A stretch of DNA of 25,389 nt from an uncultured Candidatus Saccharibacteria bacterium. GTDB lineage: Bacteria; Patescibacteriota; Minisyncoccia; Phycocordibacterales; PALSA-1337. The position numbers and the translations under genes were made by a program. The notes under the pieces are model-generated. The model saw only the letters and a program-made list of their open reading frames with translations, searched no databases and was not told the DNA's origin. Shown here piece after piece: positions 1-13,421 of the stretch. The DNA lies in the NCBI GenBank assembly GCA_964600335.1, contig CAZRJE010000001.1, forward strand, positions 1-25,389, in the 5' to 3' direction. Each line of letters opens with the position of its first letter. Position 1 is the stretch's first letter.

Positions 1-595
1 TCTTTTCTTCGTGCAACCATTTATGTTTTGAATTCTTCTGAATCGAACGATCGTCATGGTTTTCAATGGCATATACAAAAATTCCATACTTGAATCTCTG
101 TGAACCATGCCAACGAAAGAAATCTTCATCAATATCAAGCATCTTCTTTGTTGGCCACAATAGATAACATTCTTTCACATCTTTTTTCCATGACATATCT
201 CTAAATGCTTGTTTTATGCCGAGAATACCAGAATAAAATCGTATCTTAGGTCTCGATACAGTATCAGAGATCTTGGTATTATTTATAAGTCTTATGAGTT
301 CAGATTGAGCATTTTTTATAGATTTTACTCTTTCTTCATAGACATTATTGATTTGCGACATGTCTGATATTCCATACGATCTACTTCGATTATTGTTGTA
401 TTCATTTATGAGACTAGACTCCAAAAGGGGAGGGATAGAATCATATATGGTTGATTTTGGTAGATTCAATCTCTCAGCCAACTGAACGACCGTGGATTCA
501 CCGTATCTTATAATACTCATTAAGACATTTTTTGATACGGAAGAAAGATTGAAATAATCTAGAAAATCATTGTTATTCGGAATTCGCCGATTCAT
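1..595 (-). CDS. TrmB-family transcriptional regulator, 3'-truncated at window edge (not in ORF track)
   Basis: Hand translation from ATG at 595 is open to base 1: MNRRIPNNNDFLDYFNLSSVSKNVLMSIIRYGESTVVQLAERLNLPKSTIYDSIPPLLESSLI...RPKIRFYSGILGIKQAFRDM. N-terminal winged HTH (LAERLNLPKSTIY), coiled linker and the 'PKIRFYxG..GIK' motif of TrmB-type regulators. Confidence 0.85.
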   Translation of the reverse strand, partial: MNRRIPNNNDFLDYFNLSSVSKNVLMSIIRYGESTVVQLAERLNLPKSTIYDSIPPLLESSLINEYNNNRSRSYGISDMSQINNVYEERVKSIKNAQSELIRLINNTKISDTVSRPKIRFYSGILGIKQAFRDMSWKKDVKECYLLWPTKKMLDIDEDFFRWHGSQRFKYGIFVYAIENHDDRSIQKNSKHKWLHEEK

Positions 596-601
596 GGACT
601 T

Positions 602-610
602 ATATTAACA
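602..610 (-). promoter_or_regulatory. Extended -10 promoter in leaderless geometry for the first TrmB gene
   Basis: Minus strand reads TGT-TAATAT-aagtcc-ATG: TGn plus TAnnnT ending exactly 6 nt before the ATG at 595. Confidence 0.55.
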
Positions 611-633
611 TAATATTAGAATGTTTGCATAAT
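605..633 (+). promoter_or_regulatory. Putative sigma70 promoter for binding protein 1
   Basis: TTAACA (605-610), 17 nt, CATAAT (628-633); one mismatch each to TTGACA/TATAAT; overlaps the divergent TrmB promoter. Confidence 0.45.
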
Positions 634-644
634 CTAATAAATAT

Positions 645-1754
645 ATGAAAAAAGTAATAATATTCGGTGTGATTTTGTTCGTCGCTATTGTCTTGATTTG
701 TTTTCAATCGCTTTTTGAGCGCGATAATAAAGCCATTATAAAAATAGGTGCGGTCATATCTCTTACGGGAGATGCGAGTCCTTGGGGTGAATATGCAAAA
801 AAGGGAATGGATCTTGCTGTGGAGAGTATAAATAAAAATGGTGGCATAAATGGTCGAAATGTTGAAATTGTGTATGAAGATGATCATACTGATCCAAAAC
901 AAGCAGTATCTTCATGGAATAAATTGTCTGATATTGATAAAGTCCAAGGCATAATCGGTGGGGTATTTGATTTTACAGCTCAACCACTCATTCCTTTGGC
1001 AGAATCGCGTAAAATTGGATTTATTTCACCGTCAAATTTTCGAATAGAGGGCGGTTTTGAACTGAATCAAAATAGTTTTGTAATGCTGACTGATTTTGAT
1101 CAAACTATTATGAAATTGAAGCCTTTCATTGAAAGTAATAAAATAGACAATCTTGCAGTCGTTCATTTCAAATCAACTTTCGGCACTCAGATCTATAAGA
1201 CCCTAAATAAAGTCATGAATGAATTGGGGAGACATTTAGCATTTAATGAACAGTATGCAAAAATTGGAAACAATGACTTTCGAACAACTATTATAAAATT
1301 AAAATCTGAGAATGTTGATGCTGTGTTTATCGATGCGGTAGCAGACGATCCATTAAACTTTATAAAGCAATCTACACAGCTTGGATTTCGGCCTGTATTT
1401 ATAACTTACAATGGAGCGTTAGATGCTTTTACAAATATTCAAGATAAAAAATTATTGGAAGGTGTTGTTATATTGAATTGGGAAATATCTACCCCATATT
1501 TTAATCAATTGTTTAAGGATAAATATAATATTGAGGCTACTAAATCTGCTGACAAATATTTTGATGCCGTATATGTTATGGCAAATGCAATTGCTAATAC
1601 GAATCATAAAGATGCTGTATCGAAATACATTGAATCAAATACATTTTCGACTCCGAATGGTCAAATAACATTCAAAGAAAATCATTCAGTAAAGGATTTA
1701 AGCACCGCTATTCAAGTCTACAAAGACGGTAAATTACAAAATTGGCCGGAGTGA
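645..1754 (+). CDS. LivJ/LivK-like (type I periplasmic-binding fold) ABC substrate-binding protein 1, N-terminal membrane anchor
   Basis: 369 aa; MKK plus hydrophobic helix; IKIGAVISLTG, GGINGRNVEIVYEDD and DFRTTIIKLK motifs typical of branched-chain amino-acid-type binding proteins. Confidence 0.9.
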   Translation: MKKVIIFGVILFVAIVLICFQSLFERDNKAIIKIGAVISLTGDASPWGEYAKKGMDLAVESINKNGGINGRNVEIVYEDDHTDPKQAVSSWNKLSDIDKVQGIIGGVFDFTAQPLIPLAESRKIGFISPSNFRIEGGFELNQNSFVMLTDFDQTIMKLKPFIESNKIDNLAVVHFKSTFGTQIYKTLNKVMNELGRHLAFNEQYAKIGNNDFRTTIIKLKSENVDAVFIDAVADDPLNFIKQSTQLGFRPVFITYNGALDAFTNIQDKKLLEGVVILNWEISTPYFNQLFKDKYNIEATKSADKYFDAVYVMANAIANTNHKDAVSKYIESNTFSTPNGQITFKENHSVKDLSTAIQVYKDGKLQNWPE

Positions 1755-1789
1755 TTATTTATTTGATCTATAATCGGTTAGTCTCTATA

Positions 1790-2539
1790 TCATTTCGCAA
1801 TCCTCCACAAATAATCGAAATGCTTTTGAAAGGCCGTAACGACGATTGGATTATTTATTGTAAATATGACAGGATTATCACCCCATACAGATATCATTAT
1901 CTCCTTTTGGGATATATTTAAAGTGTAGGGAAGCATATATCTCGAAGATAAATACTTGATTTCATATATAGAACTATCCGGACGTTCTTTTTGGATTATG
2001 TTATTTATTGTCTTATTTGTAATCATTCTCGCTTTACATTTTTTTCTAATCATAATCTTATCTACAACATTACTAAAGAAATTTCGAATTTCTCTAGATT
2101 CTTTGTATTCGGGTCCGACGAGAGTAATTATCGAAAGTGTCTCCTTTGGATTCATGAGTGATATATGATTTTCATAAGCCATTTTGAAACCCCTGATACC
2201 TTCGTATGTATTTGTCTCATTCCTTTCATTTCTTATTATGGGAAGGTCTTCAAGAGATTGTGATAAATCAATCAATCTCTTTGTATTGTCTTTTACTTCA
2301 TCGATGAGTTGGTTTGGTATTTCTGCCTGATAATACTTTATATTATTCTTCACTTGATATGTCACAAGACCTTTGAGTACTAGGTGGCGTAGGGAAGAGT
2401 ACACTCTAGAACTCGCTATCCCACTCATTTTTATTATAGGTCCAGTCTTCGATCTGCCAATTGAAAGAAGAGTCGAATATATTTTGACATCATTTTTATT
2501 TAGACCAAAATATTCAAGTATTTCTGAGTTTATTGTCAT
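1790..2539 (-). CDS. TrmB-family transcriptional regulator (249 aa; start moved from 2680 to ATG 2539)
   Basis: MTINSEILEYFGLNKNDVKIYSTLL...SGIASSRVYSSLRHLVLKGLV winged HTH; TYEGIRGFK; C-terminal ...FTINNPIVVTAFQKHFDYLW characteristic of TrmB C-terminal domains. The upstream extension overlaps the divergent gene. Confidence 0.88.
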   Translation of the reverse strand: MTINSEILEYFGLNKNDVKIYSTLLSIGRSKTGPIIKMSGIASSRVYSSLRHLVLKGLVTYQVKNNIKYYQAEIPNQLIDEVKDNTKRLIDLSQSLEDLPIIRNERNETNTYEGIRGFKMAYENHISLMNPKETLSIITLVGPEYKESREIRNFFSNVVDKIMIRKKCKARMITNKTINNIIQKERPDSSIYEIKYLSSRYMLPYTLNISQKEIMISVWGDNPVIFTINNPIVVTAFQKHFDYLWRIAK

Positions 2540-2565
2540 GATATTGCACTCCCAAACGGGAGAGT

Positions 2566-2593
2566 TTGCATTAATAAATAGTGTATATACAAT
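2566..2593 (+). promoter_or_regulatory. Putative sigma70 promoter for binding protein 2
   Basis: TTGCAT (2566-2571), 16 nt, TACAAT (2588-2593). Confidence 0.45.
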
Positions 2594-2621
2594 ACTAATA
2601 TTAAGATTAAATGTCAATATT

Positions 2622-3770
2622 ATGAAAAAAGTTTTATACACATGCGTTGTTATATTGTTTGTGGGGGTTATTTGTCTCATAAGTGCTTTGAAGGTTAATC
2701 AAAAGTCAGGTGATAAGACAGATATTAAGATTGGCGGTATCTTTGCCCTAACTGGAATTGGTGCTGATCAGGGAGAACAAGAATTAAATGCGGCGTTGTT
2801 GGCAATTCAGGATATAAATGATAGCGGTGGCATAAATGGTCGGAATGTAAAATTAATCTCAGGTGATGTGTCTATTGATCGATTAAATATTGCAGTATCG
2901 GTTGCAAGACATGAGATAGACGCAGAAAAAGTAACTGCAATAGTTGGTACCACATGGGATGAGCCAGCTTCAGTCATCGTTCCTATAGCAAATGATTCAA
3001 AAGTACCAATGATAGGACAGAATCAGACTAAAATGATTGAGAAGGATAGATCTTATCCATATTTCTTTTCTACGTGGTATGACAATGAAATTGGAATAAA
3101 AAAATTATTAGAATTCGCGAAATCAAAAGATTGGCATAGATTAGCAATAATCAGACCTGTCGCTGACGGATTTTATCAATACGTATCAAATGAAGTTATC
3201 AGTCTGGCTCCTAAATATTCGATTGAAATAATAGCAAATGAGAATCTCAATAATCCAGCCGCGACTGATTTTAGGACTTCATTAACAAAGATTAAATCTC
3301 TTAAGCCTGATGCTATCGTTGTGGTCCTAGGTGTATTTACAGAATGTCCTTTTTTAAAACAAGAGATCGAACTAGGTATGGATATACCTGTATTGGCAAC
3401 AGAATCTGCTTTGAGTTATAACTCATTAAATCAATGTTCTGAACTTATGAAAAATCTATATATTTCATATCCAAAAGAGACAATGCAGTATGATAATTTT
3501 GCAAAGAGATACAATCAGAAATTCGGAAGATTCCCAGAAACCCCATCCGTCATGACAACCTATGATGCTTTTATGATTATTGCTCAAGCTTTAAAAAAGA
3601 CAAATGGTAATGGTGGCGATGAATTGAGGTCTGTCATAGAGTCCACAAAGGATTATGAAGGTGTATCAATCGACAAAATAAATTTTGATTCTATGGGTTA
3701 TGTCCTAACTCCACAGGATGCCTTTGAGATACGATCGGTGAAAGATAAAGAATTCATTCACTTGTACTGA
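2622..3770 (+). CDS. LivJ/LivK-like ABC substrate-binding protein 2 (382 aa; start moved to ATG 2622)
   Basis: MKKVLYTCVVILFVGVICLISAL anchor; IKIGGIFALTG, GGINGRNVKLI, DFRTSLTKIK, YDAFMIIAQAL. The ORF-track extension from 2373 is antisense to TrmB. Confidence 0.9.
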   Translation: MKKVLYTCVVILFVGVICLISALKVNQKSGDKTDIKIGGIFALTGIGADQGEQELNAALLAIQDINDSGGINGRNVKLISGDVSIDRLNIAVSVARHEIDAEKVTAIVGTTWDEPASVIVPIANDSKVPMIGQNQTKMIEKDRSYPYFFSTWYDNEIGIKKLLEFAKSKDWHRLAIIRPVADGFYQYVSNEVISLAPKYSIEIIANENLNNPAATDFRTSLTKIKSLKPDAIVVVLGVFTECPFLKQEIELGMDIPVLATESALSYNSLNQCSELMKNLYISYPKETMQYDNFAKRYNQKFGRFPETPSVMTTYDAFMIIAQALKKTNGNGGDELRSVIESTKDYEGVSIDKINFDSMGYVLTPQDAFEIRSVKDKEFIHLY

Positions 3771-3786
3771 TAGACCGTAAACCCAA

Positions 3787-3814
3787 TTGTTAAATTATCG
3801 TCTTAATGTATACT
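3787..3814 (+). promoter_or_regulatory. Putative sigma70 promoter for binding proteins 3-5
   Basis: TTGTTA (3787-3792), 16 nt, TATACT (3809-3814), in the gap upstream of ATG 3845. Confidence 0.4.
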
Positions 3815-3844
3815 GTGCTTAATAATATCAATATTAAACACATT

Positions 3845-4960
3845 ATGTTGAAATATATAAAGATCTTGCTTGGAATAATAATCGTTGCATTTGTTTTGTC
3901 TGTAATCTTACAAAAAGATAAAAAAGTCGATCAAAAGACATTTATTATCGGAGCGAGTCAGGCATTGACTGGAAGCGCTGCTTACTACGGTGAGCAAACA
4001 CAAAAAGGTATAAATCTTGGAATTGATTGGCTCAAAGAAAAATATCCAGAATATACTTTTAAAGTAATTTCTGAAGACAATCAGTTTAATGCGAAAGTTG
4101 CTATTGATAATTACAACAAATTAGTCAATCAAGATAAAATCGATGCAATAATTACTCACAACAGTCCTTCTTCTGTAGCTATTGCTCCGCTCGCAAAAAG
4201 GGATGGTATATTGCAAATAGCTATTTCCGCTGCGGCTAGTACTTATTCATCGCCTGATGATCTATCTTTTAGAACTACAGGAGTGTCATCGGATGAAGTC
4301 ATACCGATGTCAAAGTACATATCTTCAAAGTATAAAAAGATTGCCATATTATTCATGAATAATGAAATTGGTACAAGTGAAGCAAATGATCTAACAGAAT
4401 TGTTAAATAAAGAAAGTAATATAAAGATAGTTTCGAATGAAAGTTTTGCTGTTGAAAATAAGGATTTTAGAACGCAGATTGCAAAATTGAAAAGTCTTTC
4501 TCCTGATGCTGTATATATAGCTGGTCTTGCCTCTCATATAATTGATTTTGTGAAGCAGACAAAAGAACTTCATCTGACTTATCCTATTTTATCTTTTAGA
4601 ACTGCCGAAGACCCATCAATATTTAGTTCATTAGTAAATGATGCAAATGGAATCATATTTACAAATTTCTTTGATTCTTATGCTTCATCAACCGAAATAT
4701 CAAAGATGGTTAATATTTACAAGAAGACATTCAATCGTAATCCGGACAGTTATGTTGCTGAAGGTTATGAAGCAACGAGGCTCGTGGGTACTGCTCTAGT
4801 TAGATGTAAAAAAGATGAAACATGCATAAAAAAGTTTTTTGCTGAACTTCCGGATTTTGATAGTATTTTCGGTGAAATAAAGTATGATATAAACGGTGAT
4901 ATACATCACAGATATATATTACAAAAGATTGACGGAGAAAATTTTATAACAATCAATTAA
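3845..4960 (+). CDS. LivJ/LivK-like ABC substrate-binding protein 3 (371 aa from MLKYIK; ATG 3806 is an alternative start)
   Basis: Hydrophobic anchor; IGASQALTGSAAYYG, SEDNQF, DFRTQIAKLK, YVAEGYEA, GEIKYDINGD. Confidence 0.9.
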   Translation: MLKYIKILLGIIIVAFVLSVILQKDKKVDQKTFIIGASQALTGSAAYYGEQTQKGINLGIDWLKEKYPEYTFKVISEDNQFNAKVAIDNYNKLVNQDKIDAIITHNSPSSVAIAPLAKRDGILQIAISAAASTYSSPDDLSFRTTGVSSDEVIPMSKYISSKYKKIAILFMNNEIGTSEANDLTELLNKESNIKIVSNESFAVENKDFRTQIAKLKSLSPDAVYIAGLASHIIDFVKQTKELHLTYPILSFRTAEDPSIFSSLVNDANGIIFTNFFDSYASSTEISKMVNIYKKTFNRNPDSYVAEGYEATRLVGTALVRCKKDETCIKKFFAELPDFDSIFGEIKYDINGDIHHRYILQKIDGENFITIN

Positions 4961-4985
4961 TAATTATTATTAAAAATATAAAGAC

Positions 4986-6044
4986 ATGTCCAAAATATTA
5001 AAGACTTTGATAGGTATTGTGATTGTTATAGTTATCATTGTATTTATATCAACCTTACCAAACAAGAAATACAATTCCATAATAAAAATCGGAATAATTG
5101 GACCATTTTCTGGGGCAGCACAGAGTGTAGGTGAAGAGATAAGAAATACAATTCTTCTTGCAAGTAGTTCGAAGACATCATTTTTATTTGAGGATGATCA
5201 ATGTGATTCAAAAAAAGCGATCTCAAGTTATCAAAAATTAAAGCTCGAAGATGTTCATGTATATTATGTTGCTTGTAGTGGAAGTGTTCTCGCCATCGCT
5301 CCGATCGTAAAACAAGACAATAATCTAATAGTTACAGCGTATGCGGGCTCATCTCAGATTCGTGATACTGGCGATGAAGTTATTCGATTTATACCGGATG
5401 CTCTTTCGATTGCCGATAAAATGGCGAAATATTCATTGCAATTAGCCTCATCGAGCAAGGTTGGACTGTTTTATGAAAAGCAGGATTATTCTGTGTCAGT
5501 TGCAAACAATATAAAGAGTAGTTTAGGATCTTTGGTGAAATATGAAGATACATATTCTGGTGATGGAAATTCATTTAAGACTCAAATCGCAAAATTAAAG
5601 TCGGCTCAGATTTCTCACTTAATTTATATTCCAACGACTGATAAATCGGAAAAAATTATTTTCAGTGAAATGAGAGATATGAATTTCAAGCCGTTTCTTA
5701 TTGGAGATATAAATGTTTGTGAATATGCAAATGAACCAAAAGATTATGGTTTGAAAAGTGTGTGTTTTGATGCGGCTTTTTTAAATGAAACTCCTGCATA
5801 TCAGAAATTTAAGGATGATTATAAAAAGATCTATAATAATGAGGCAAAATCACCATATTATGATGCTATCACTCTAGATATTATGAAGATGATTCAAAGA
5901 TCTGAGATTCAGAATGATGAAAAGCTAGTCGAAAATTTAAAAAAATATTTTCTTGATGGAATACAAGGAGAAATGTCAGAATATCATTTCACATCTAATG
6001 GTGAAGTTGTAGCTGACCCACATATAAAGATGTTTGAGAGATAA
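4986..6044 (+). CDS. LivJ/LivK-like ABC substrate-binding protein 4
   Basis: 352 aa; anchor helix; IKIGIIGPFSG, FEDDQCD, VACSGS, FKTQIAKLK, YDAI; lacks the GGINGR segment. Confidence 0.88.
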   Translation: MSKILKTLIGIVIVIVIIVFISTLPNKKYNSIIKIGIIGPFSGAAQSVGEEIRNTILLASSSKTSFLFEDDQCDSKKAISSYQKLKLEDVHVYYVACSGSVLAIAPIVKQDNNLIVTAYAGSSQIRDTGDEVIRFIPDALSIADKMAKYSLQLASSSKVGLFYEKQDYSVSVANNIKSSLGSLVKYEDTYSGDGNSFKTQIAKLKSAQISHLIYIPTTDKSEKIIFSEMRDMNFKPFLIGDINVCEYANEPKDYGLKSVCFDAAFLNETPAYQKFKDDYKKIYNNEAKSPYYDAITLDIMKMIQRSEIQNDEKLVENLKKYFLDGIQGEMSEYHFTSNGEVVADPHIKMFER

Positions 6045-6079
6045 TAATTATCAATAATAATAGTAATAATAAGAAAATT

Positions 6080-7186
6080 ATGTCCAAAAAAATAAAAATA
6101 GTTATAGGGATTATCATAGTGATTGTGGTGGTGGTCTTATTGTCGCAGAAAAGAGGAGATAATGGTCCTATCAAGATTGGTTTTATTGGACCTTTGACTG
6201 GTGATGTTTCAAATCTTGGAGTTATTAGTAAATCCGCTGTAGAACTTGCAACAAAAGAAATGAATGATGCGGGTGGTATAAATGGTAGAAAAGTCGAAGT
6301 TTTGTATGAGGACGGTAAATGTACTCCTGTAGTTGCATTGAATTCGGCAAATAAATTGTTAAATGTTGATCACGTAAGTGCAATAATTGGTGGTATGTGC
6401 TCGGGTGAGACTTCTTCATTCATAAAGAATGCGACCGAAATGAAGATTCCAGTTATTTCATATTGTTCATCTGCACCGTCACTTAGCAATTCTGGTCCTA
6501 TGTTCTTTAGGACATATCCATCAGATTCATATCAAGGGAAATATGCCGCCATGTATGCTTATAATGTTTTGAAGATAAAAAAGATTGCGATTTTGTATCA
6601 TATATCAGACTGGGGAACGGGTCTAAAAGATGTATTTACAAAGACGTTTACTGAACTTGGGGGAACTATCGTGGCTACAGAGGGAGCAACTCAAGAGACA
6701 AAAGACTATAGAACTCAACTCTCAAAAATCAAAGCTCAAAACCCGGAATATATTTATATGGCAGTTTATACTGATGGGGGTCTAATCTCTATTCAACAGT
6801 CAGTAGATCTTGGTATAAAGGCAAAACTACTTGGCACAGATACGTGGAATGATCCAAAGTTTGTATCATCAGTAAATCAGAAAGCTGATATTACATATGT
6901 GGGTAGTACAAATAATCCGAGTCAAGATTTTTCAGATAAGTTGATGAAATTTGCTCAAGTAAAGGAAGTACCAATATGCGCGCCTCAAGCTTACGATGCA
7001 ACAAATGTATTATTCTCAGCAATAAAGGAGTCGGGTCTCGACGGTGAAGCGATTTCAAAGTCTATTCATTCAACAAAATATTCTGGTGTAAATGGGCCAG
7101 TTGAATTTGATCAAAACGGTGATATTGTTGCTACAAATTATGTGATAAGGAAGATAATAAATAATAAACTCGTTGAGATAAAATAA
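6080..7186 (+). CDS. LivJ/LivK-like ABC substrate-binding protein 5 (most canonical)
   Basis: 368 aa; IKIGFIGPLTGD, GGINGRKVEVLYEDGKC, GGMCSGET, FFRTYPSDSYQG, DYRTQLSKIK, GPVEFDQNGD. Confidence 0.93.
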   Translation: MSKKIKIVIGIIIVIVVVVLLSQKRGDNGPIKIGFIGPLTGDVSNLGVISKSAVELATKEMNDAGGINGRKVEVLYEDGKCTPVVALNSANKLLNVDHVSAIIGGMCSGETSSFIKNATEMKIPVISYCSSAPSLSNSGPMFFRTYPSDSYQGKYAAMYAYNVLKIKKIAILYHISDWGTGLKDVFTKTFTELGGTIVATEGATQETKDYRTQLSKIKAQNPEYIYMAVYTDGGLISIQQSVDLGIKAKLLGTDTWNDPKFVSSVNQKADITYVGSTNNPSQDFSDKLMKFAQVKEVPICAPQAYDATNVLFSAIKESGLDGEAISKSIHSTKYSGVNGPVEFDQNGDIVATNYVIRKIINNKLVEIK

Positions 7187-7189
7187 CTC

Positions 7190-7218
7190 TTCAAATTCTT
7201 CGCGAAATGTGAAAGAAT
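7190..7218 (+). promoter_or_regulatory. Possible internal leaderless promoter for livG-livF
   Basis: TTCAAA (7190-7195), 17 nt ending in TGA, AAGAAT (7213-7218), 6 nt, ATG 7225; the first T of the -10 is mismatched. Confidence 0.35.
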
Positions 7219-7224
7219 AGTAGT

Positions 7225-7971
7225 ATGTCTCTACAAACTCATAATATTTCAAAGCACTTTGGTGGAGTATACGCTCTCAATAATCTAAATATTGTTCTAA
7301 AAAAGGGCATTATCACGGGTATTATTGGTCCAAATGGTTCTGGTAAATCAACTCTGGTGAATGTTCTCACGGGTGTATTATCGCTTGATGCGGGTAGTAT
7401 GACTATTCTTGGTGAAAAACTTCAGAAAGTTCAACCACATCAAGTACCATTTATTGGTCTCACCAGAACATTTCAAGATGTTAGATTGTTTGAACAGCTA
7501 AGTGTTCTTGATAATATTCTCGTAGTTTTGACTGAGAGAAGTGTATGGTCATCAATATTTGAAAAGCATACAAAGATTCATGTAAGTAGAGCGCATGAAG
7601 CGCTTGATAAAGTTGGTTTATTATTCAAAAAAGATGAATTAGCAAAAAATCTTTCATATGGTCAGAGGAAGCTTCTTGAAATCGCTCGTGTTCTAGCTAT
7701 GGAACATTCTGGTACAGGAGATCTAGAGATATTTTTATTCGATGAGCCATTTGCTGGATTATTCCCAGAAATGATAAAGATAGTCAAAGAAGTGTTATTG
7801 GATTTGAAGAGTCGAGGAAAGTCAGTCGTTTTGATTGAGCACAATATCGATCTTATTCGAAGTCTTTCAGATCAAATATTTGTATTAGATTCAGGACAAT
7901 TGCTTGCGCAGGGTGTTCCTGAGGAAGTATTATCAAGGAAGGATGTTATTGAAGCGTATTTAGGAGAATGA
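7225..7971 (+). CDS. livG: Branched-chain amino acid ABC transporter ATPase
   Basis: KHFGGVYAL, Walker A GPNGSGKST, RTFQDVRLF, LSYGQRKLLEIAR, FDEPFAG, IEHNIDL, C-terminal VIEAYLG. Confidence 0.9.
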   Translation: MSLQTHNISKHFGGVYALNNLNIVLKKGIITGIIGPNGSGKSTLVNVLTGVLSLDAGSMTILGEKLQKVQPHQVPFIGLTRTFQDVRLFEQLSVLDNILVVLTERSVWSSIFEKHTKIHVSRAHEALDKVGLLFKKDELAKNLSYGQRKLLEIARVLAMEHSGTGDLEIFLFDEPFAGLFPEMIKIVKEVLLDLKSRGKSVVLIEHNIDLIRSLSDQIFVLDSGQLLAQGVPEEVLSRKDVIEAYLGE

Positions 7972-8702
7972 TATTCAAAAATAATTCAATGGAAAAACTA
8001 TTAACAATCGAAAACATCAAAGTTCACTACGGTGGAGTAAAGGCACTAGACGGTGCTTCGGTGTATATAGATGAGGGAGAAGTAGTGGCACTCATGGGTC
8101 CAAACGGTGCCGGCAAGTCAACCGTTCTCAAAGCTATATTTGGTCTCGCTCCTATAGAATCCGGAAAGTTATATTGGGAGGGCCATGAATATAAACCGAT
8201 ATCATATGAAGTGGTAAAAAGGGGAATATCTTTTGTACCCCAAGGCAGGAGAGTATTCAAGCATCTTACGGTACTTGAAAATCTGGAAATAGGTGGAATG
8301 GACGTCGATAGAAATATAAGAAAAGAGAGAATAGACAATGTATTACAATTATTTCCTGCTCTAAAGCAAAAGATAAAAGAAAGATCGGGCACTTTGTCGG
8401 GAGGACAACAGCAGATGTTAGCTATAGCACGCGGACTTATGACGGATCCAAAGATATTGTTGTTAGATGAACCGTCGCTTGGACTTTCACCGAAAATAGT
8501 AAAGGAAGTTTTTTCACTGATCAAAGAAATCAATGAAAGACGAAATATGGCGATCGTGGTAGTAGAACACAATATAAAATCATTGATTGAAATATCCGAC
8601 AGGGTTTATATATTAGATAAAGGAAAAGTAGTTGCAGAAGGTGAACCGAAGACACTCGTCACTTCAGAAATAATGGAGAAAGTATTTCTAGGAAAAGCCT
8701 AG
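7968..8702 (+). CDS. livF: Branched-chain amino acid ABC transporter ATPase
   Basis: GPNGAGKST, FVPQGRRVF, LTVLENLEIG, LSGGQQQMLAIARGL, LLLDEPSLGLSP, VEHN; ATGA overlap with livG. Confidence 0.92.
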   Translation: MIFKNNSMEKLLTIENIKVHYGGVKALDGASVYIDEGEVVALMGPNGAGKSTVLKAIFGLAPIESGKLYWEGHEYKPISYEVVKRGISFVPQGRRVFKHLTVLENLEIGGMDVDRNIRKERIDNVLQLFPALKQKIKERSGTLSGGQQQMLAIARGLMTDPKILLLDEPSLGLSPKIVKEVFSLIKEINERRNMAIVVVEHNIKSLIEISDRVYILDKGKVVAEGEPKTLVTSEIMEKVFLGKA

Positions 8703-8706
8703 TTTA

Positions 8707-8755
8707 ATTCTAGGTTTCTCATTCTAGGTTGGTCCTCTAGGACCAACCTAGAATT
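8707..8755. repeat. Perfect 16-bp inverted repeat plus upstream direct copy of its arm; possible terminator or protein-binding site
   Basis: ATTCTAGGTTGGTCCT (8721-8736), CT, AGGACCAACCTAGAAT (8739-8754); ATTCTAGGTT is also present at 8707-8716. Confidence 0.85.
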
Positions 8756-8813: not shown

Positions 8814-9917
8814 ATGCAATTATTTGATGAAAATACACGAGCGGTATACATGATAGATCGAATTTTAGAAAAGGCAGTCTCATGCCGTGCCTCCGATGTG
8901 CATCTCGATATCAATCGAGAGCATATTTACTTAAGATTTCGTATAGACGGCATTATGGAATACATAGGTCATATTTCAAATAGTATTTATTCCGAATTAT
9001 ACTCACGATTTAAAATACTTGCAGGATTGAGAACAGATATACATACAGAGCCTCAGGATGGTCGATATGAAGTAAAGATATTCGATAGATCCTACAATAT
9101 TCGTATATCGTTTATGCCTACATATTATGGTGAGAGTGTCGTACTTAGATTATTACCATTTCGGGAAGATAAATCTTACACATTCGAAGATATAGGTCTA
9201 AATACACTTCATATACAGTCAATAATATCAAATTTAACAAAAACTTCAGGTATTATACTGATTACAGGTCCGACTGGTTCTGGCAAGACTACCACTCTCA
9301 ATATTTGTTTAAAGATTAAGTCTCAAGAACCAATATCTGTAATATCTCTAGAAGATCCAATAGAATATGAAGTCAAAGGTGTGAGACAGGTTAATGTTAG
9401 ACAAAATTCAGGATTTACTTTTGCGAGGGCATTGAAAGCCTGTTTGAGACAAGATCCAGACGTCATAATGGTTGGAGAGATAAGAGATAGAGAAACAGCT
9501 GAGATAGCTATTCATACAGCGCTCACGGGTCATCTCGTATTGTCTACTTTACACGCTGGCAGAGCAAATCAGGTTTTGGAAAGACTCTACGGTATGGGAA
9601 TAGAAAAATATCTCATATTGGAAACCCTAAATCTCATAATCGCTCAAAGATTAGTGAGAAAAGTCTGTAGTATTTGCAAAATGATCAACATAGAAAGATG
9701 CGAGTCATGTCGACATACGGGATATGATGGCAGGACTATCATTGCAGAGATAATCGATATTACAAAGCTAAGAAAAGAGAAAAATATGCGCACGCTCGAA
9801 GTATTTGATATAGACGATTATATTCAGAGTTCAGAATATATTTCTCTCGAGAAAGATGCAAAGGAAAAAATCTCTAAAGGAATTACAACACTATTGGAAA
9901 TGAAAAGAGTTTTATGA
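8814..9917 (+). CDS. Type IV pilus / T2SS assembly ATPase (PilB/GspE/ComGA family), short form
   Basis: 367 aa; RASDVHLD...RFRIDG, PQDGR, Walker A GPTGSGKTTT, Asp box EDPIEY, LRQDPDVIMVGEIRD, His box TGHLVLSTLHA, CxxC...CxxC. Confidence 0.93.
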   Translation: MQLFDENTRAVYMIDRILEKAVSCRASDVHLDINREHIYLRFRIDGIMEYIGHISNSIYSELYSRFKILAGLRTDIHTEPQDGRYEVKIFDRSYNIRISFMPTYYGESVVLRLLPFREDKSYTFEDIGLNTLHIQSIISNLTKTSGIILITGPTGSGKTTTLNICLKIKSQEPISVISLEDPIEYEVKGVRQVNVRQNSGFTFARALKACLRQDPDVIMVGEIRDRETAEIAIHTALTGHLVLSTLHAGRANQVLERLYGMGIEKYLILETLNLIIAQRLVRKVCSICKMINIERCESCRHTGYDGRTIIAEIIDITKLRKEKNMRTLEVFDIDDYIQSSEYISLEKDAKEKISKGITTLLEMKRVL

Positions 9918-10966
9918 TTTCAAAAAGAGATAAATTATCAAAAAAATCGAGTCTAATTATGCTTGAAAAACTTACATTTTATTTAGATTCACACATGCCA
10001 CTTGATGTGGCGCTAAGATCGAGTATAGATACAAACAATTCAAAAGACAAAATCATCTCAAAAAATATACTCTATATGATTGAATCAGGAGGGTCGATTT
10101 CAAGTGCTTTGAATAAATATACGAGATTGCCTCTGGCTTTTATTACTATGATAAGAGGCGGTGAAAAGTCTCAAAATATGAACAAATCGATATCAACAGT
10201 GATTGAGTCCATAAATAGACAAGATGATTTAAAGAAAAAGATAATATCGTCCATGACATATCCTGCCATCATCGGGTTATTTGCACTGCTTATGACTATA
10301 GGTTTAGTGCGAGGTATATTGCCACAAATAATACCCATGCTAAAAGGTCTCAATATTAAACTACCTTTTTTGACTCGCACGGTTATATTTGTCTCAGATT
10401 TCATATCAAGATATGGTCTTATTATCTTTGGATTTGCCATCATTATTATTACAGCGCTTATTATTACAAACAAAAAGTCAAAGAAATTTAGATATATATT
10501 ACACAAAAATACTTTGAGAATACCGATACTTGGTCGTATATTGATTCTTTATGATTTGGCATTTATCGGGATTTCATTTTCATCAATGTTAGAGTCCGGT
10601 ATTTCATTGGTTGATTCGTATAGTGAAATAATCTCAATTTCAAGAAATGAATTTATTAGTAGATCATTGGCACAGTATAAAGAGGAAATAAACAATGGAG
10701 TAAGTGTATCAGTGATATTGACTCGCTTCAGTTTTTTTCCAGTGGACATGATTTCACTCATAAATGCTGGAGAAAAATCAGGAAAGATATCTTATGCATG
10801 GAAGAGATGTTCCGAATCTTTCAATAGTGAACTCGATCATTTATTAAAGAGATTTACATCTCTCATTGAGCCTACGCTTATGATTACTATGGGTATTGTC
10901 ATTGGTTCAATTGCTTTATCAATCATGCTACCAATATATGAAATGTCAAAAAGTTTACAAAAATAG
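9914..10966 (+). CDS. Type IV pilus / T2SS inner-membrane platform protein (PilC/GspF/ComGB family)
   Basis: 350 aa; KKIISSMTYP, LPFLTR, RIPILGR, MISLINAGEKSG, LIEPTL..MGIVIG..ALSIMLPIY; three hydrophobic segments; ATGA overlap with the ATPase. Confidence 0.93.
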   Translation: MISKRDKLSKKSSLIMLEKLTFYLDSHMPLDVALRSSIDTNNSKDKIISKNILYMIESGGSISSALNKYTRLPLAFITMIRGGEKSQNMNKSISTVIESINRQDDLKKKIISSMTYPAIIGLFALLMTIGLVRGILPQIIPMLKGLNIKLPFLTRTVIFVSDFISRYGLIIFGFAIIIITALIITNKKSKKFRYILHKNTLRIPILGRILILYDLAFIGISFSSMLESGISLVDSYSEIISISRNEFISRSLAQYKEEINNGVSVSVILTRFSFFPVDMISLINAGEKSGKISYAWKRCSESFNSELDHLLKRFTSLIEPTLMITMGIVIGSIALSIMLPIYEMSKSLQK

Positions 10967-12434
10967 TGGCACCATACTCGTAGAAATACTTATTTCATTG
11001 TTTATTGTCACTTCATTTATCATGATTGGTTCTTCTACTGTAAACATGAGCATAACTAGATTTGAGTATATAAAGGCAAAAAAGATATTGCTGGATCGAT
11101 TTAACACTGAGATTAGTAACCTGGTACCTCTAGAAGAAAATACAAGATACGAGAAAACAATTTTTGATAATACACTCAAAACAAATATCAATATTGTTTA
11201 TTCATGGAGAAAATATCTCAATATTGGAAAGGAAATAGATTTTTGGCTTAGTGCTTCGACAAGTCAATATTCTAGAATAGATCTGTTTTTTGCTCGTATA
11301 GTAAATAGTGAAGATATATCTGTTGATACAAAACATGTATATGATTCATGCTCAATCGATATGACTAGAAATGAGAAAATTGGCGATTATGCTTTTTGGC
11401 AAAATCAGAATCCATATATATCAAGGCCAAAAGATAAGCTCGATATTCGAGATTATAAGATAAAGACCTCAATAAAAAATCTCAATGTTCATAATAATCT
11501 TTATCCAACGAGCATGTATATATCAAGCTCAACGTTATATATTTCAGAAGATTCAAATGTTATTTCAGATCCAGATTTGTATATATTTGATATAAACGGT
11601 ACGAATCTCAATGTATTGAAAAGTATAAATACTGGTCCAGGAATCGCTGAATTTCAGGTGGATCGCGATCATATATATGTAGCAAATAGGAGTACGACTC
11701 AACAATTGCAGATTCTGGATATTTCAAATGGTAATTTGAGTATAATTGCAAAATACCGATTGCCACTTTTGAGTACTACTACAGAACCAACACTTGGAAG
11801 TACGATTACAAAATTCAGAGATTATGTTTTTTTGGGTACTGAGAAGTGGGATGGAAATGAAATAAATATATTTGATGTTCATGATATTTCAAATCCAATT
11901 CTCATTTCAGGTATCGAAATCGGTAGTAAAGTCAGTGATATGAGTATAGTCCAAAACAGTCTATATGTTGTCAGTTCTCAGAATCATCAATTTCAAGAAT
12001 ATGATATTGCTAATATTTTTAATCCAAGATTGATCCGAGAATATTATTATGATGGCAGTGAAAGACAAGACGGCAAAATATTAAGTCTATTTGAAAATTC
12101 AATATTTATCGGTCGTACAAATGGAGGATTTAATATAAATTATCAATATGAACTATATTATTACAGAGACTATATCAATCGCGATTTCTCCCAAATATAT
12201 CGAGATATTCCAGGCGGAGTCTATGGAATATTGAGTGATAGACAAAGGATATATATGATAACAAAAAAGTCTGGAAATGAGTTTGAAATATTTGATAAAG
12301 AACTCTCTACTACTACGATGAAGATTGATCTTCCAATAAGTCCAAGAAAGATGATCTGTTTTAAAAATAATTTCTATATTTTAGGAGAACAGAGTCCTTT
12401 TGTATATGAATTAAATATAGAAAGAAATGAATAA
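10938..12434 (+). CDS. Pilin-like protein (class III signal peptide) fused to LVIVD-repeat / beta-propeller domain (498 aa; start moved to ATG 10938)
   Basis: MKCQKVYKNSG|TILVEILISLFIVTSFIMIG (E at +5, hydrophobic helix). C-terminal repeats: IYVANRSTTQQLQILDIS, YVFLGTEKWDGNEINIFDVHDISNPILIS, LYVVSSQNHQFQEYDIANIFNPRLI. Confidence 0.8.
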   Translation: MKCQKVYKNSGTILVEILISLFIVTSFIMIGSSTVNMSITRFEYIKAKKILLDRFNTEISNLVPLEENTRYEKTIFDNTLKTNINIVYSWRKYLNIGKEIDFWLSASTSQYSRIDLFFARIVNSEDISVDTKHVYDSCSIDMTRNEKIGDYAFWQNQNPYISRPKDKLDIRDYKIKTSIKNLNVHNNLYPTSMYISSSTLYISEDSNVISDPDLYIFDINGTNLNVLKSINTGPGIAEFQVDRDHIYVANRSTTQQLQILDISNGNLSIIAKYRLPLLSTTTEPTLGSTITKFRDYVFLGTEKWDGNEINIFDVHDISNPILISGIEIGSKVSDMSIVQNSLYVVSSQNHQFQEYDIANIFNPRLIREYYYDGSERQDGKILSLFENSIFIGRTNGGFNINYQYELYYYRDYINRDFSQIYRDIPGGVYGILSDRQRIYMITKKSGNEFEIFDKELSTTTMKIDLPISPRKMICFKNNFYILGEQSPFVYELNIERNE

Positions 12435-12582
12435 ATCACAGATAAAAGCTTTTACTTTGATTGAAATTCTAATATACATATCGTTACTTGCGTTTATCGT
12501 CATATCAATTTTTCCTCACATACTTTATCAAGATAAACAAAATGCTCAATTATTAAATAAGACGATAGAACTATATGAATAG
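12427..12582 (+). CDS. 51-aa mini-pilin, PilW-like position (not in ORF track)
   Basis: Hand translation: MNKSQIKA|FTLIEILIYISLLAFIVISIFPHILYQDKQNAQLLNKTIELYE*. FTLIE N-methylation motif; 8-nt ATGAATAA/ATGAATAG overlaps with both neighbours. Confidence 0.85.
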   Translation: MNKSQIKAFTLIEILIYISLLAFIVISIFPHILYQDKQNAQLLNKTIELYE

Positions 12583-12790
12583 ACAAGGATTTGTATCATT
12601 TATCGCGATAAACATAATAGTATTCGTATCTATTTTTTATATGGTACTTGTCTCATTGATATTGGGTTCTCACTATGATCTTATAAATTTGAAAGAATAT
12701 AGAATACAGAGAAATTTAAATAATAGTGCGAGAGACGATCTAACTTCCAGGTTTAAGATTGACCAATCTTTCTTTGTAGATTTAAATTAA
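12575..12790 (+). CDS. 71-aa PilX/GspK-like minor pilin lacking Glu5
   Basis: MNRQG|FVSFIAINIIVFVSIFYMVLVSLILG: basic leader, G|F cleavage site, hydrophobic helix, no E at +5, follows two other minor pilins. Confidence 0.65.
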   Translation: MNRQGFVSFIAINIIVFVSIFYMVLVSLILGSHYDLINLKEYRIQRNLNNSARDDLTSRFKIDQSFFVDLN

Positions 12791-12872
12791 TTTATGAATA
12801 TTTGATCTCAATTTTAAATTAAATTTATAACACTAAGCTACCATATTCATATTATTAATAATTAAAATACAT

Positions 12873-13421
12873 ATGAATATGACAAAATTGAGAGATAGTG
12901 TTCGTGATAGAGTGAAACCTATAAAGATAAAGAAGAATCATATTAAGGTCGAAAGACGAGCAAAGAAATCCGGATTTACTTTGATTGAAGTCCTAGTTGT
13001 GATAGGTATTATTGCAATTTTAGCTACCGTCGTCCTTGTTGCTGTAAATCCATCAAGACAATTTAAACTTGCTCGTGATACTGAGAGAACCAGTCATGTA
13101 AATACAATTTTAAATGCCATAGGCCAAAATATCACCGAGCATAAAGGTATATTTACTTGCGAAAATAATCCGAAGACGCTTCCAAATTCACCGACAGTCA
13201 TAAAATCTAGTGATGAAAATCATTCCGGAGCGGGAGATATAGCCCACTGCCTCATTCCGGACTATATATCTTCTATTCCGGTCGATCCAAATAAGACAGG
13301 AGCTCACTTTGCCTCACTTACTGATTATGATACTCAATATGAAATATCTGTAGATTCAAATGGTCGTATTACGGCAAGTTCATCCGGAGAAATTAGTCCT
13401 CTTATAAGTGTGACACGCTGA
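12873..13421 (+). CDS. Type IV pilin, probable major pilin
   Basis: KKSG|FTLIEVLVVIGIIAILATVVLVAVNPSRQFKLARDTER; two Cys in the globular part; long basic leader. Confidence 0.92.
   Translation: MNMTKLRDSVRDRVKPIKIKKNHIKVERRAKKSGFTLIEVLVVIGIIAILATVVLVAVNPSRQFKLARDTERTSHVNTILNAIGQNITEHKGIFTCENNPKTLPNSPTVIKSSDENHSGAGDIAHCLIPDYISSIPVDPNKTGAHFASLTDYDTQYEISVDSNGRITASSSGEISPLISVTR

Follow-up and report, generated by a model that had tools for sequence, protein, structure and literature searches.

In Escherichia coli, the LIV-I/LS system (HAAT, TC 3.A.1.4) is an ATP-binding cassette (ABC) importer in which the receptors LivJ and LivK share one LivHMGF translocator. A related arrangement exists in Borrelia burgdorferi, where five OppA receptors serve one OppBCDF translocator, so that a small-genome auxotroph widens the range of a single importer by multiplying its receptors, and likewise with AliA, AliB and AmiA in Streptococcus pneumoniae. 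In this study, we describe a locus made of the same receptor, ATPase and permease families as LIV-I/LS, found in an uncultured bacterium deposited as Candidatus Saccharibacteria (GTDB lineage Patescibacteriota; Minisyncoccia; Phycocordibacterales; PALSA-1337; assembly GCA_964600335.1). The stretch analysed, hereafter the window, comprises 25,389 nt, positions 1 to 25,389 of contig CAZRJE010000001.1 (C1 below), and begins with an array of genes for LivJ/K-type binding proteins (SBPs), TrmB-family regulators and Liv-type ATPases. With a probability of roughly 0.7, we read the window as containing the right-hand portion of an ABC import locus of the HAAT family (LivHMGF type) with several receptors, and we give the same weight to the proposal that these receptors differ in specificity, are regulated separately and share a single HAAT importer.

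A TrmB-family regulator encoded within an ABC-importer locus is known from the trehalose/maltose cluster of Thermococcus litoralis and Pyrococcus furiosus. Multiplied Liv-type receptors have been described in Rhodopseudomonas palustris, where the COG0683 expansion includes several receptors in one transporter cluster, e.g. RPA3723-3725, and many Peripla_BP_6 paralogues with ligands beyond branched-chain amino acids (PMC3223731). Most proteins of this family in R. palustris did not bind branched-chain amino acids, and the ligands were other amino acids, aromatic acids, fatty acids or dicarboxylates (PMC3223731). For bacteria of the candidate phyla radiation (CPR), our literature search found no description of SBP arrays or of TrmB-SBP cassettes. 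The CPR bacteria, or Patescibacteria, cannot make most building blocks, and what they import, and how, is largely unknown.

Results

Gene content of the array

The source genome is a 618-kb metagenome-assembled genome (MAG) of 69 contigs, 84% complete, and the window is the start of its contig C1; the locus comes from wastewater and activated-sludge samples. Open reading frame (ORF) listing and Pfam identified in the window five intact ORFs for Peripla_BP_6 (LivJ/K-type) proteins, two divergent TrmB genes and a livG-livF pair. This is the gene content proposed in an earlier note on this DNA, which was made from the sequence alone, and it is confirmed here with corrected boundaries. All five receptor ORFs, which lie on the plus strand, score above the Pfam cut-off of 31.7 bits: SBP1 (645-1754) with 149 bits, SBP2 (2622-3770) with 141, SBP3 (3845-4960) with 133, SBP4 (4986-6044), the most divergent and weakest, with 57, and SBP5 (6080-7186) with 188. 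TrmB1 (2-595, minus strand) lies head-to-head with SBP1, and TrmB2 (1790-2539, minus strand) with SBP2. Downstream of SBP5 are the genes for a LivG-type ATPase (7225-7971, plus strand), which has a BCA_ABC_TP_C tail and is the sole LivG-like gene of the genome, and for a LivF-type ATPase (7968-8702, plus strand), which overlaps livG by 4 nt. From SBP2 to livF, successive genes are separated by 25-74 nt or overlap, and SBP2 is the first gene of a putative SBP2-SBP3-SBP4-SBP5-livG-livF unit.

Every component falls in the Liv/Urt (HAAT) group. The best NCBIfam match of all five SBPs is the LivJ subfamily, and those of the ATPases are UrtD/LivG and UrtE/LivF, although none attains an NCBIfam equivalog cut-off; the best PDB sequence matches of the five SBPs are LivJ, LivK and 4gnr. 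The array lies on one 34-kb contig (C1), and four DNA runs hold 0.97-0.99 of the locus words.

MKK-type starts are visible at 2622 for SBP2 and at 2539 for TrmB2. As read from the sequence, the true start of SBP2 is ATG 2622, not TTG 2373, the long TTG-initiated ORF being over-extended, and that of TrmB2 is 2539, the 296-aa version (ORF 1790-2680, minus strand) being likewise over-extended. SBP3 probably starts at 3845, with 3806 as an alternative start.

Pfam found no LivH or LivM permease in the window. The absence of these permeases, implied in the earlier note, is an assembly artefact, since the window starts at a contig break and a livH-like gene is located on a separate 2-kb contig, C65, behind a TrmB gene. 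Contig ends in this assembly overlap by exactly 55 nt, an assembler k-mer signature. By such an exact overlap, the right end of contig C64 joins the left end of the window and completes the TrmB1 ORF to 260 aa, of which the window holds the N-terminal 198. Directly downstream of TrmB1, on the same strand, C64 carries a further binding-protein gene, and with this gene the local array has at least six receptors. When contigs C18 and C65 are joined, a receptor of full length (371 aa) results, encoded head-to-head with a TrmB gene that is followed by the livH-type permease gene. In total, 12 genes for Peripla_BP_6 proteins and 7 for TrmB proteins are accompanied by a single livG-livF pair and a single permease gene visible in the assembly, so that the genome has more receptors than translocator sets.

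Contig C40 (5 kb, 41% GC), one end of which overlaps contig C4 by 55 nt, carries one of the 12 SBPs, which is almost identical to one in G041, a closer relative. LivF, unlike this SBP, is only 79% identical between the source genome and G041, and C40 may be mis-binned or recently transferred.

Copy number and layout in related genomes

Among 25 genomes of the same genus, Peripla_BP_6 copies vary from 0 to 22. Twelve of these genomes have permeases, including the source genome with its one assembled permease gene, and contain 1-22 SBPs; each of the other 11 has exactly two BPD_transp_2 genes. Nine of the 13 congeners without permeases are also without SBP, and the remaining four, with 1-5 SBPs and permease not found, are fragmented or partial cases. 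Thus, the receptor number varies in relatives as had been anticipated, with a single translocator and its two permease genes beside it.

In the order, permeases are present in 41 of 301 sampled genomes, nearly always two, and SBP counts in 20 of these 41 are mostly 1-7. One genus of another family has 15 and 30 SBPs with two permease genes, together with 21 and 15 TrmB genes, and in its locus a receptor and a divergent TrmB gene alternate almost regularly between livM/livF and livH. In well-assembled relatives, single livH, livM, livG and livF genes are scattered among SBP and TrmB genes in one locus of 20-33 kb, with up to 14 receptor genes in one such congener locus (20-25 kb), whereas more distant relatives have a plain SBP-livH-livM-livG-livF operon.

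A permease of the BPD_transp_1 family was found neither in the source genome nor in 20 of 24 congeners. Judged by these two permease families, the Liv-type system therefore appears to be the sole importer dependent on a binding protein that was detected in most of these genomes.

Further features of the congener loci are of note for the layout of the array. Unlike the coupled pair of the window, livG and livF are non-adjacent in most congeners (loci L019, L010, L013, L018, L020 and L021): livG ends one unit, a convergent TrmB gene follows, and livF comes last in the next unit, after 3-4 receptor genes. A gene for an EamA-like transporter (DMT superfamily) recurs in three congener arrays (L011:8011-8940, L012:9657-10577 and L016:12301-13194), and arrays also contain a GNAT/FeeM-like acyltransferase gene (L016:5940-6716) and a RhuM-family gene (L018:11044-12144).

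Membrane anchoring of the receptors

All complete SBPs of the genome have an M-K/S-K start, then about 20 hydrophobic residues, then 6-12 residues before the first beta-strand. When the source and related genomes are taken together, 83 of 86 receptors have an N-terminal segment of transmembrane (TM) grade, defined as a window of 19 residues whose mean Kyte-Doolittle score is 1.6 or higher (median 2.8), and a lipobox-like motif occurs in none of the 86. Lgt and LspA were not found in the source genome, which is 84% complete, and Lgt was absent from the search results in 40 of 41 genomes, many of them more than 95% complete, being found in one. Considering the hydrophobic N-termini together with the lack of a lipobox and of detectable Lgt and LspA, the receptors are most likely attached to the outside of the cytoplasmic membrane through a signal-anchor that stays uncleaved. 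The earlier suggestion of membrane-anchored receptors without a lipobox is in line with these results.

Pocket residues

In an alignment with E. coli LivJ, SBP5 retains C78, S79 and Y202, with Ser in place of T102, Trp in place of Y150 and Asp in place of E226, and by this comparison it is the only receptor of the array that keeps the LivJ amino-acid pocket. SBP1, whose pocket is of a non-LivJ kind, has W, V, F-D, S, then N-F or F-R (the two alignments differ), F, V and N at the LivJ columns; it has no acidic residue at the position of E226, and an Asp where LivJ has the carboxylate-binding Ser79. SBP2, an intermediate case, has W-D at C78-S79 but keeps Glu at E226, and the two alignments differ at the positions of T102 and Y202. 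In SBP1, SBP3 and SBP4, the residues for binding the alpha-amino and the alpha-carboxylate group are missing. An acidic residue at the position of LivJ E226 is kept in the orthogroups SBP5, E, F and G.

Over 12 orthogroups, the ten pocket columns transferred from LivJ show 64% identity inside orthogroups and 11% between them, as compared to 50% and 22% for the whole domain, and none of 500 random ten-column sets attains this contrast. A pocket that is kept within orthogroups and differs between them is the pattern expected of paralogues settled on different ligands, and the alignments, albeit of low identity, suggest that this is what the receptors are.

TrmB regulators and their cassettes

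The TrmB winged helix-turn-helix (wHTH) domain (PF01978; cut-off 25.6 bits) scores 27 bits in TrmB1 and 48.7 bits in TrmB2. Pfam gave no match beyond this domain in the TrmB proteins of the window, and they lack the subdomain with which classical TrmB binds sugar at its C-terminus. The AlphaFold2 model of the 249-aa TrmB2 (pLDDT 87) has the full TrmBL2 architecture, in which the wHTH is followed by a long helix and a PLD-like C-terminal domain, and its top Foldseek matches are TrmBL2 structures (PDB 5bqt and 5box, E 2e-14). The TrmB2 profile matches the 263-aa TrmBL2 (5box) end to end, but TrmB (3qph) only over residues 5-151. Because both profile and fold searches favour TrmBL2, the regulators of the window are regarded as TrmBL2-like rather than as sugar-sensing TrmB proper.

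The fetched loci contain 37 divergent TrmB|SBP pairs. Orthologues of TrmB1 (63% identity) adjoin SBP1 orthologues in at least three other species, a TrmB2 orthologue adjoins an SBP2-clade receptor, and a C65-type TrmB gene adjoins a C18-type receptor; the regulator and receptor trees agree for these three classes (TrmB1/SBP1, TrmB2/SBP2 and TrmB_C65/SBP_C18). The divergent cassette, first seen as a repeated unit in the window, is thus real and recurrent, and by the agreement of the trees TrmB1/SBP1 and TrmB2/SBP2 are inherited as units. TrmB and receptor counts are correlated with rho 0.61, a value that is descriptive only, as related genomes are non-independent.

The region common to TrmB1 and SBP1 (596-644), a control region by its position, has an inverted repeat, CTTATATTA-N3-TAATATTAG, at 599-619, which overlaps a promoter-like site at 605-633. 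This repeat is a candidate operator, and promoter-like matches are not above chance in such AT-rich DNA. Within the region common to TrmB2 and SBP2 (2540-2621) there is a palindrome or hairpin, CTCCC-AAAC-GGGAG, at 2549-2562, 9 nt from the TrmB2 start codon; equivalent palindromes are found beside the TrmB2 orthologue in G019 and beside a TrmB gene of G150, not necessarily an orthologue. Perfect inverted repeats in the TrmB-proximal 45 nt have a mean score of 6.9, against 4.5 in the receptor-proximal 45 nt and 4.6 in shuffles, and they reach p<=0.05 in 10 of 29 regions where about 1.5 are expected. These TrmB-proximal palindromes could be DNA operators or hairpins of the 5'-untranslated region. 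A sigma-70 consensus scan found 50 sites versus 46 expected, that is, no signal, so our claim on promoters goes no further than position.

Some 26 nt across the TrmB1 start (window 560-600), reading ATTCGC-WW-TTCGCCGAATCATGGACA on the plus strand and containing TTCG-C-CGAA, are nearly invariant in five species in which the TrmB1 proteins are only about 60% identical. The orthologous sites are at L019:~8179, L020:~7540, L010:~15400 and the L012/L013 junction in G013. Such invariance suggests a constraint at the DNA or RNA level, such as an auto-operator.

Age of the receptors

The 12 binding proteins of the genome are 16-30% identical in pairwise comparison. In a tree of 86 receptors, the copies of a genome do not cluster (63 label changes versus a shuffled mean of 62), and the well-supported groups are orthogroups with one member per species; recent tandem duplication was rejected on the basis of the unclustered genome labels. 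SBP1 orthologues on the tree are 62% identical. A database search with SBP1 returned 162 homologous clusters at E<=1e-10, and among the 120 listed, the 119 clusters other than that of the window protein itself are 43-65% identical. Orthologues of the array SBPs occur at 40-65% identity in many species, and the SBP4 orthologue in G013, 42% identical, has matching pocket residues.

The earlier note had pictured regulator-receptor units being added at the left of the array. Neither this ongoing local expansion nor an origin of the five receptors by recent local duplication agrees with identities of 16-30% and with paralogues that belong to deep orthogroups common to several species. On the trees, the array is a set of ancient cassettes, not of fresh local additions, and given the depth of the orthogroups, repertoires seem to vary because old cassettes were differentially kept, lost or exchanged.

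The named SBP1 matches among those listed are Ca. Taylorbacteria, Parcubacteria group, Ca. Paceibacterota and Patescibacteria group. Of the LivF loci that carry a name, the closest is labelled Ca. Saccharibacteria, but this label is probably an artefact, as SBP1 homologues with names are of Parcubacteria type. SBP5 branches beside L024, a single-SBP operon used as outgroup, while the second outgroup, L023, nests inside the receptor radiation, so that the tree lacks a clean root. Loci from outside the CPR that came up with LivF (L025-L038) were rejected as outgroups because they are unrelated ABC ATPases without a Liv-type SBP. With these loci unusable and L023 nested, the radiation may have arisen once in the lineage or may include transfers.

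Strain variation and RNA libraries

Contigs from four metatranscriptome libraries cover SBP2-SBP5, with a strain about 96% identical in two of the libraries and short near-identical pieces in the two others. This coverage fits expression without proving it, as the libraries carry no strand information and DNA carry-over is possible. Among the strain differences listed for SBP2, 30 of the first 40 (75%, manual count) are at third codon positions, and this bias indicates purifying selection on SBP2.

An 8.4-kb RNA-library contig of the ~96%-identical strain skips window positions 80-1791, which hold SBP1 and the greater part of TrmB1, and shows 63 different letters there instead. The gap may reflect presence or absence of a whole cassette between strains, and we do not lean on it, the flanking 78-nt match being only ~90% identical.

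Flanking features

A palindromic hairpin at 8723-8752, with a 13-bp stem and the core GGTTGGTCC-N4-GGACCAACC, closes the SBP2-to-livF unit. The element is repeated: with up to 4 mismatches allowed, the genome has nine copies, the others being at C13:10158, C15:13421, C16:108 and 1101, C26:4958, C35:2025, C41:4750 and C44:3450. Many unrelated RNA-library contigs match only the hairpin stretch, at high depth, and the element may be a shared terminator resembling repetitive extragenic palindromic sequences. Directly after the array, at 8814-13421 and outside the import unit, are type IV pilus genes for a PilB-type ATPase, a PilC-type platform protein, a pilin with a beta-propeller domain and an N-methyl pilin. 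No conserved link between pilus genes and array was seen in relatives.

Discussion

As an observation, the earlier note is confirmed, and its interpretation is partly supported. We infer that the receptors of the array work with one shared translocator. In this mechanism, an uncleaved N-terminal helix would tether each binding protein outside the cytoplasmic membrane, and each receptor would capture its own ligand and dock on the common LivH/LivM/LivG/LivF translocator. SBP5 would be the ancestral-type amino-acid receptor, and the others, with their remodelled pockets, would probably take other small-molecule ligands. The TrmBL2-like regulators, placed head-to-head with particular receptor genes, would control those units locally, presumably by acting on the common promoters in response to ligand. 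SBP1 and the C64 receptor, the latter encoded on the same strand as TrmB1, would be under the control of TrmB1, and the whole unit from SBP2 to livF under that of TrmB2.

A number of observations weigh against this reading. In G041 there are three permease pairs with 19 SBPs, so a single translocator is not universal. livM was not found in the 84%-complete source genome, in which only the livH gene on C65 is assembled, and TrmB genes occur also in congeners that have no SBP at all. TrmBL2, the closest solved structure to the regulators, is a non-specific chromatin protein, and we know of no effector for it. In relatives, the core genes (livG, livF and livH/M) are in different TrmB-headed units, so that simple induction receptor by receptor fits poorly. 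Finally, the mapping of the pockets rests on alignments of about 20% identity.

The same importer might instead be served by redundant amino-acid binders, isoforms that differ in affinity or in the conditions of their expression. Such redundancy would fit with the Liv-type amino-acid binding proteins and the LivJ subfamily being the best solved-structure and NCBIfam matches of all five receptors, and with the acidic residue at E226 in orthogroups SBP5, E, F and G. However, it is hard to reconcile with SBP1, SBP3 and SBP4, which are without the residues that hold an alpha-amino and an alpha-carboxylate group, with the Asp at the S79 position in SBP1 and in SBP2 (the latter with Glu at E226), or with pocket columns that diverge between orthogroups more than the rest of the protein does, and we consider it unlikely. 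If decaying duplicates, or a mis-assembly or mis-binning of several strains, had produced the array, one would not expect five intact ORFs on one 34-kb contig with 0.97-0.99 of the words present in four runs, orthologues at 40-65% identity in many species and strain differences biased to third codon positions. Although the MAG is in 69 contigs and the SBP on C40 (41% GC) is nearly identical to a gene of G041, this explanation is highly improbable and the least credible of all those weighed here.

It is also conceivable that most of the SBPs are surface sensors or adhesins independent of LivHMGF, for example in host-cell recognition. They are TM-anchored surface proteins, some cassettes are far from any transporter gene (on C14, on C27 and at C1:32 kb), and four congeners have 1-5 SBPs with permease not found. 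But SBP presence tracks permease presence apart from those four fragmented or partial genomes, several families have livH, livM, livG and livF interspersed among the SBP genes of a single locus, and no signalling partner gene adjoins the SBPs; a role apart from the importer thus seems quite improbable, less likely than redundancy. The shared importer with receptors of different specificity remains our preferred reading. In a more speculative extension of it to the whole order, one LivHMGF would be a general entry gate for small molecules, across which 5-30 tethered receptors divide metabolites of differing chemistry, among them ligands other than amino acids (for example amines, fatty or aromatic acids, or nucleobases), each TrmBL2-like partner being a ligand-sensing one-component switch for its receptor. 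We put this extension forward tentatively and regard it, taken whole, as more doubtful than probable.

The window itself is a modest, partly truncated example of an architecture that in this lineage takes up as much as about 3% of a 1-Mb genome, in the form of receptors for one Liv-type translocator, with up to 21 paralogous TrmB regulators devoted to controlling receptors. As small soluble domains, the receptors can be produced without growing the organism, so that ligand screens would directly test which metabolites are scavenged, and the pairs of regulator and operator would count among the first gene switches open to test in the group. If the general-gate extension is true, the cassette repertoire would state what an ultra-small cell takes from its surroundings or host.

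In comparison with known systems, several receptors per Liv-type translocator is an established design, and what our literature search did not turn up is a TM-anchored array of divergent receptors with TrmB cassettes. With E. coli LIV-I/LS the array has in common more than one receptor per translocator and, in SBP5, the ligand contacts of LivJ. However, instead of two soluble periplasmic receptors that are about 80% identical, it has 12 receptors in the genome (up to 22-30 in relatives) that are 16-30% identical, TM-anchored and remodelled in their pockets, many with a private TrmB regulator, and in relatives the transporter genes are scattered among them. The Opp system of B. burgdorferi differs in that it belongs to the peptide/Opp family (SBP_bac_5), and has lipoprotein receptors, far fewer of them, and no regulator-receptor cassette. 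In contrast to the TrmB cluster of T. litoralis and P. furiosus, the array is bacterial (CPR), is built around an HAAT importer and not one of the sugar type, has regulators without the C-terminal sugar-binding subdomain, and has many paralogous regulators per genome, each tied to a receptor class. R. palustris, with a genome of 5.5 Mb, has many complete transporters and soluble periplasmic proteins, whereas in these genomes of 0.6-1 Mb one translocator set is the rule, and it is almost the only binding-protein-dependent importer found.

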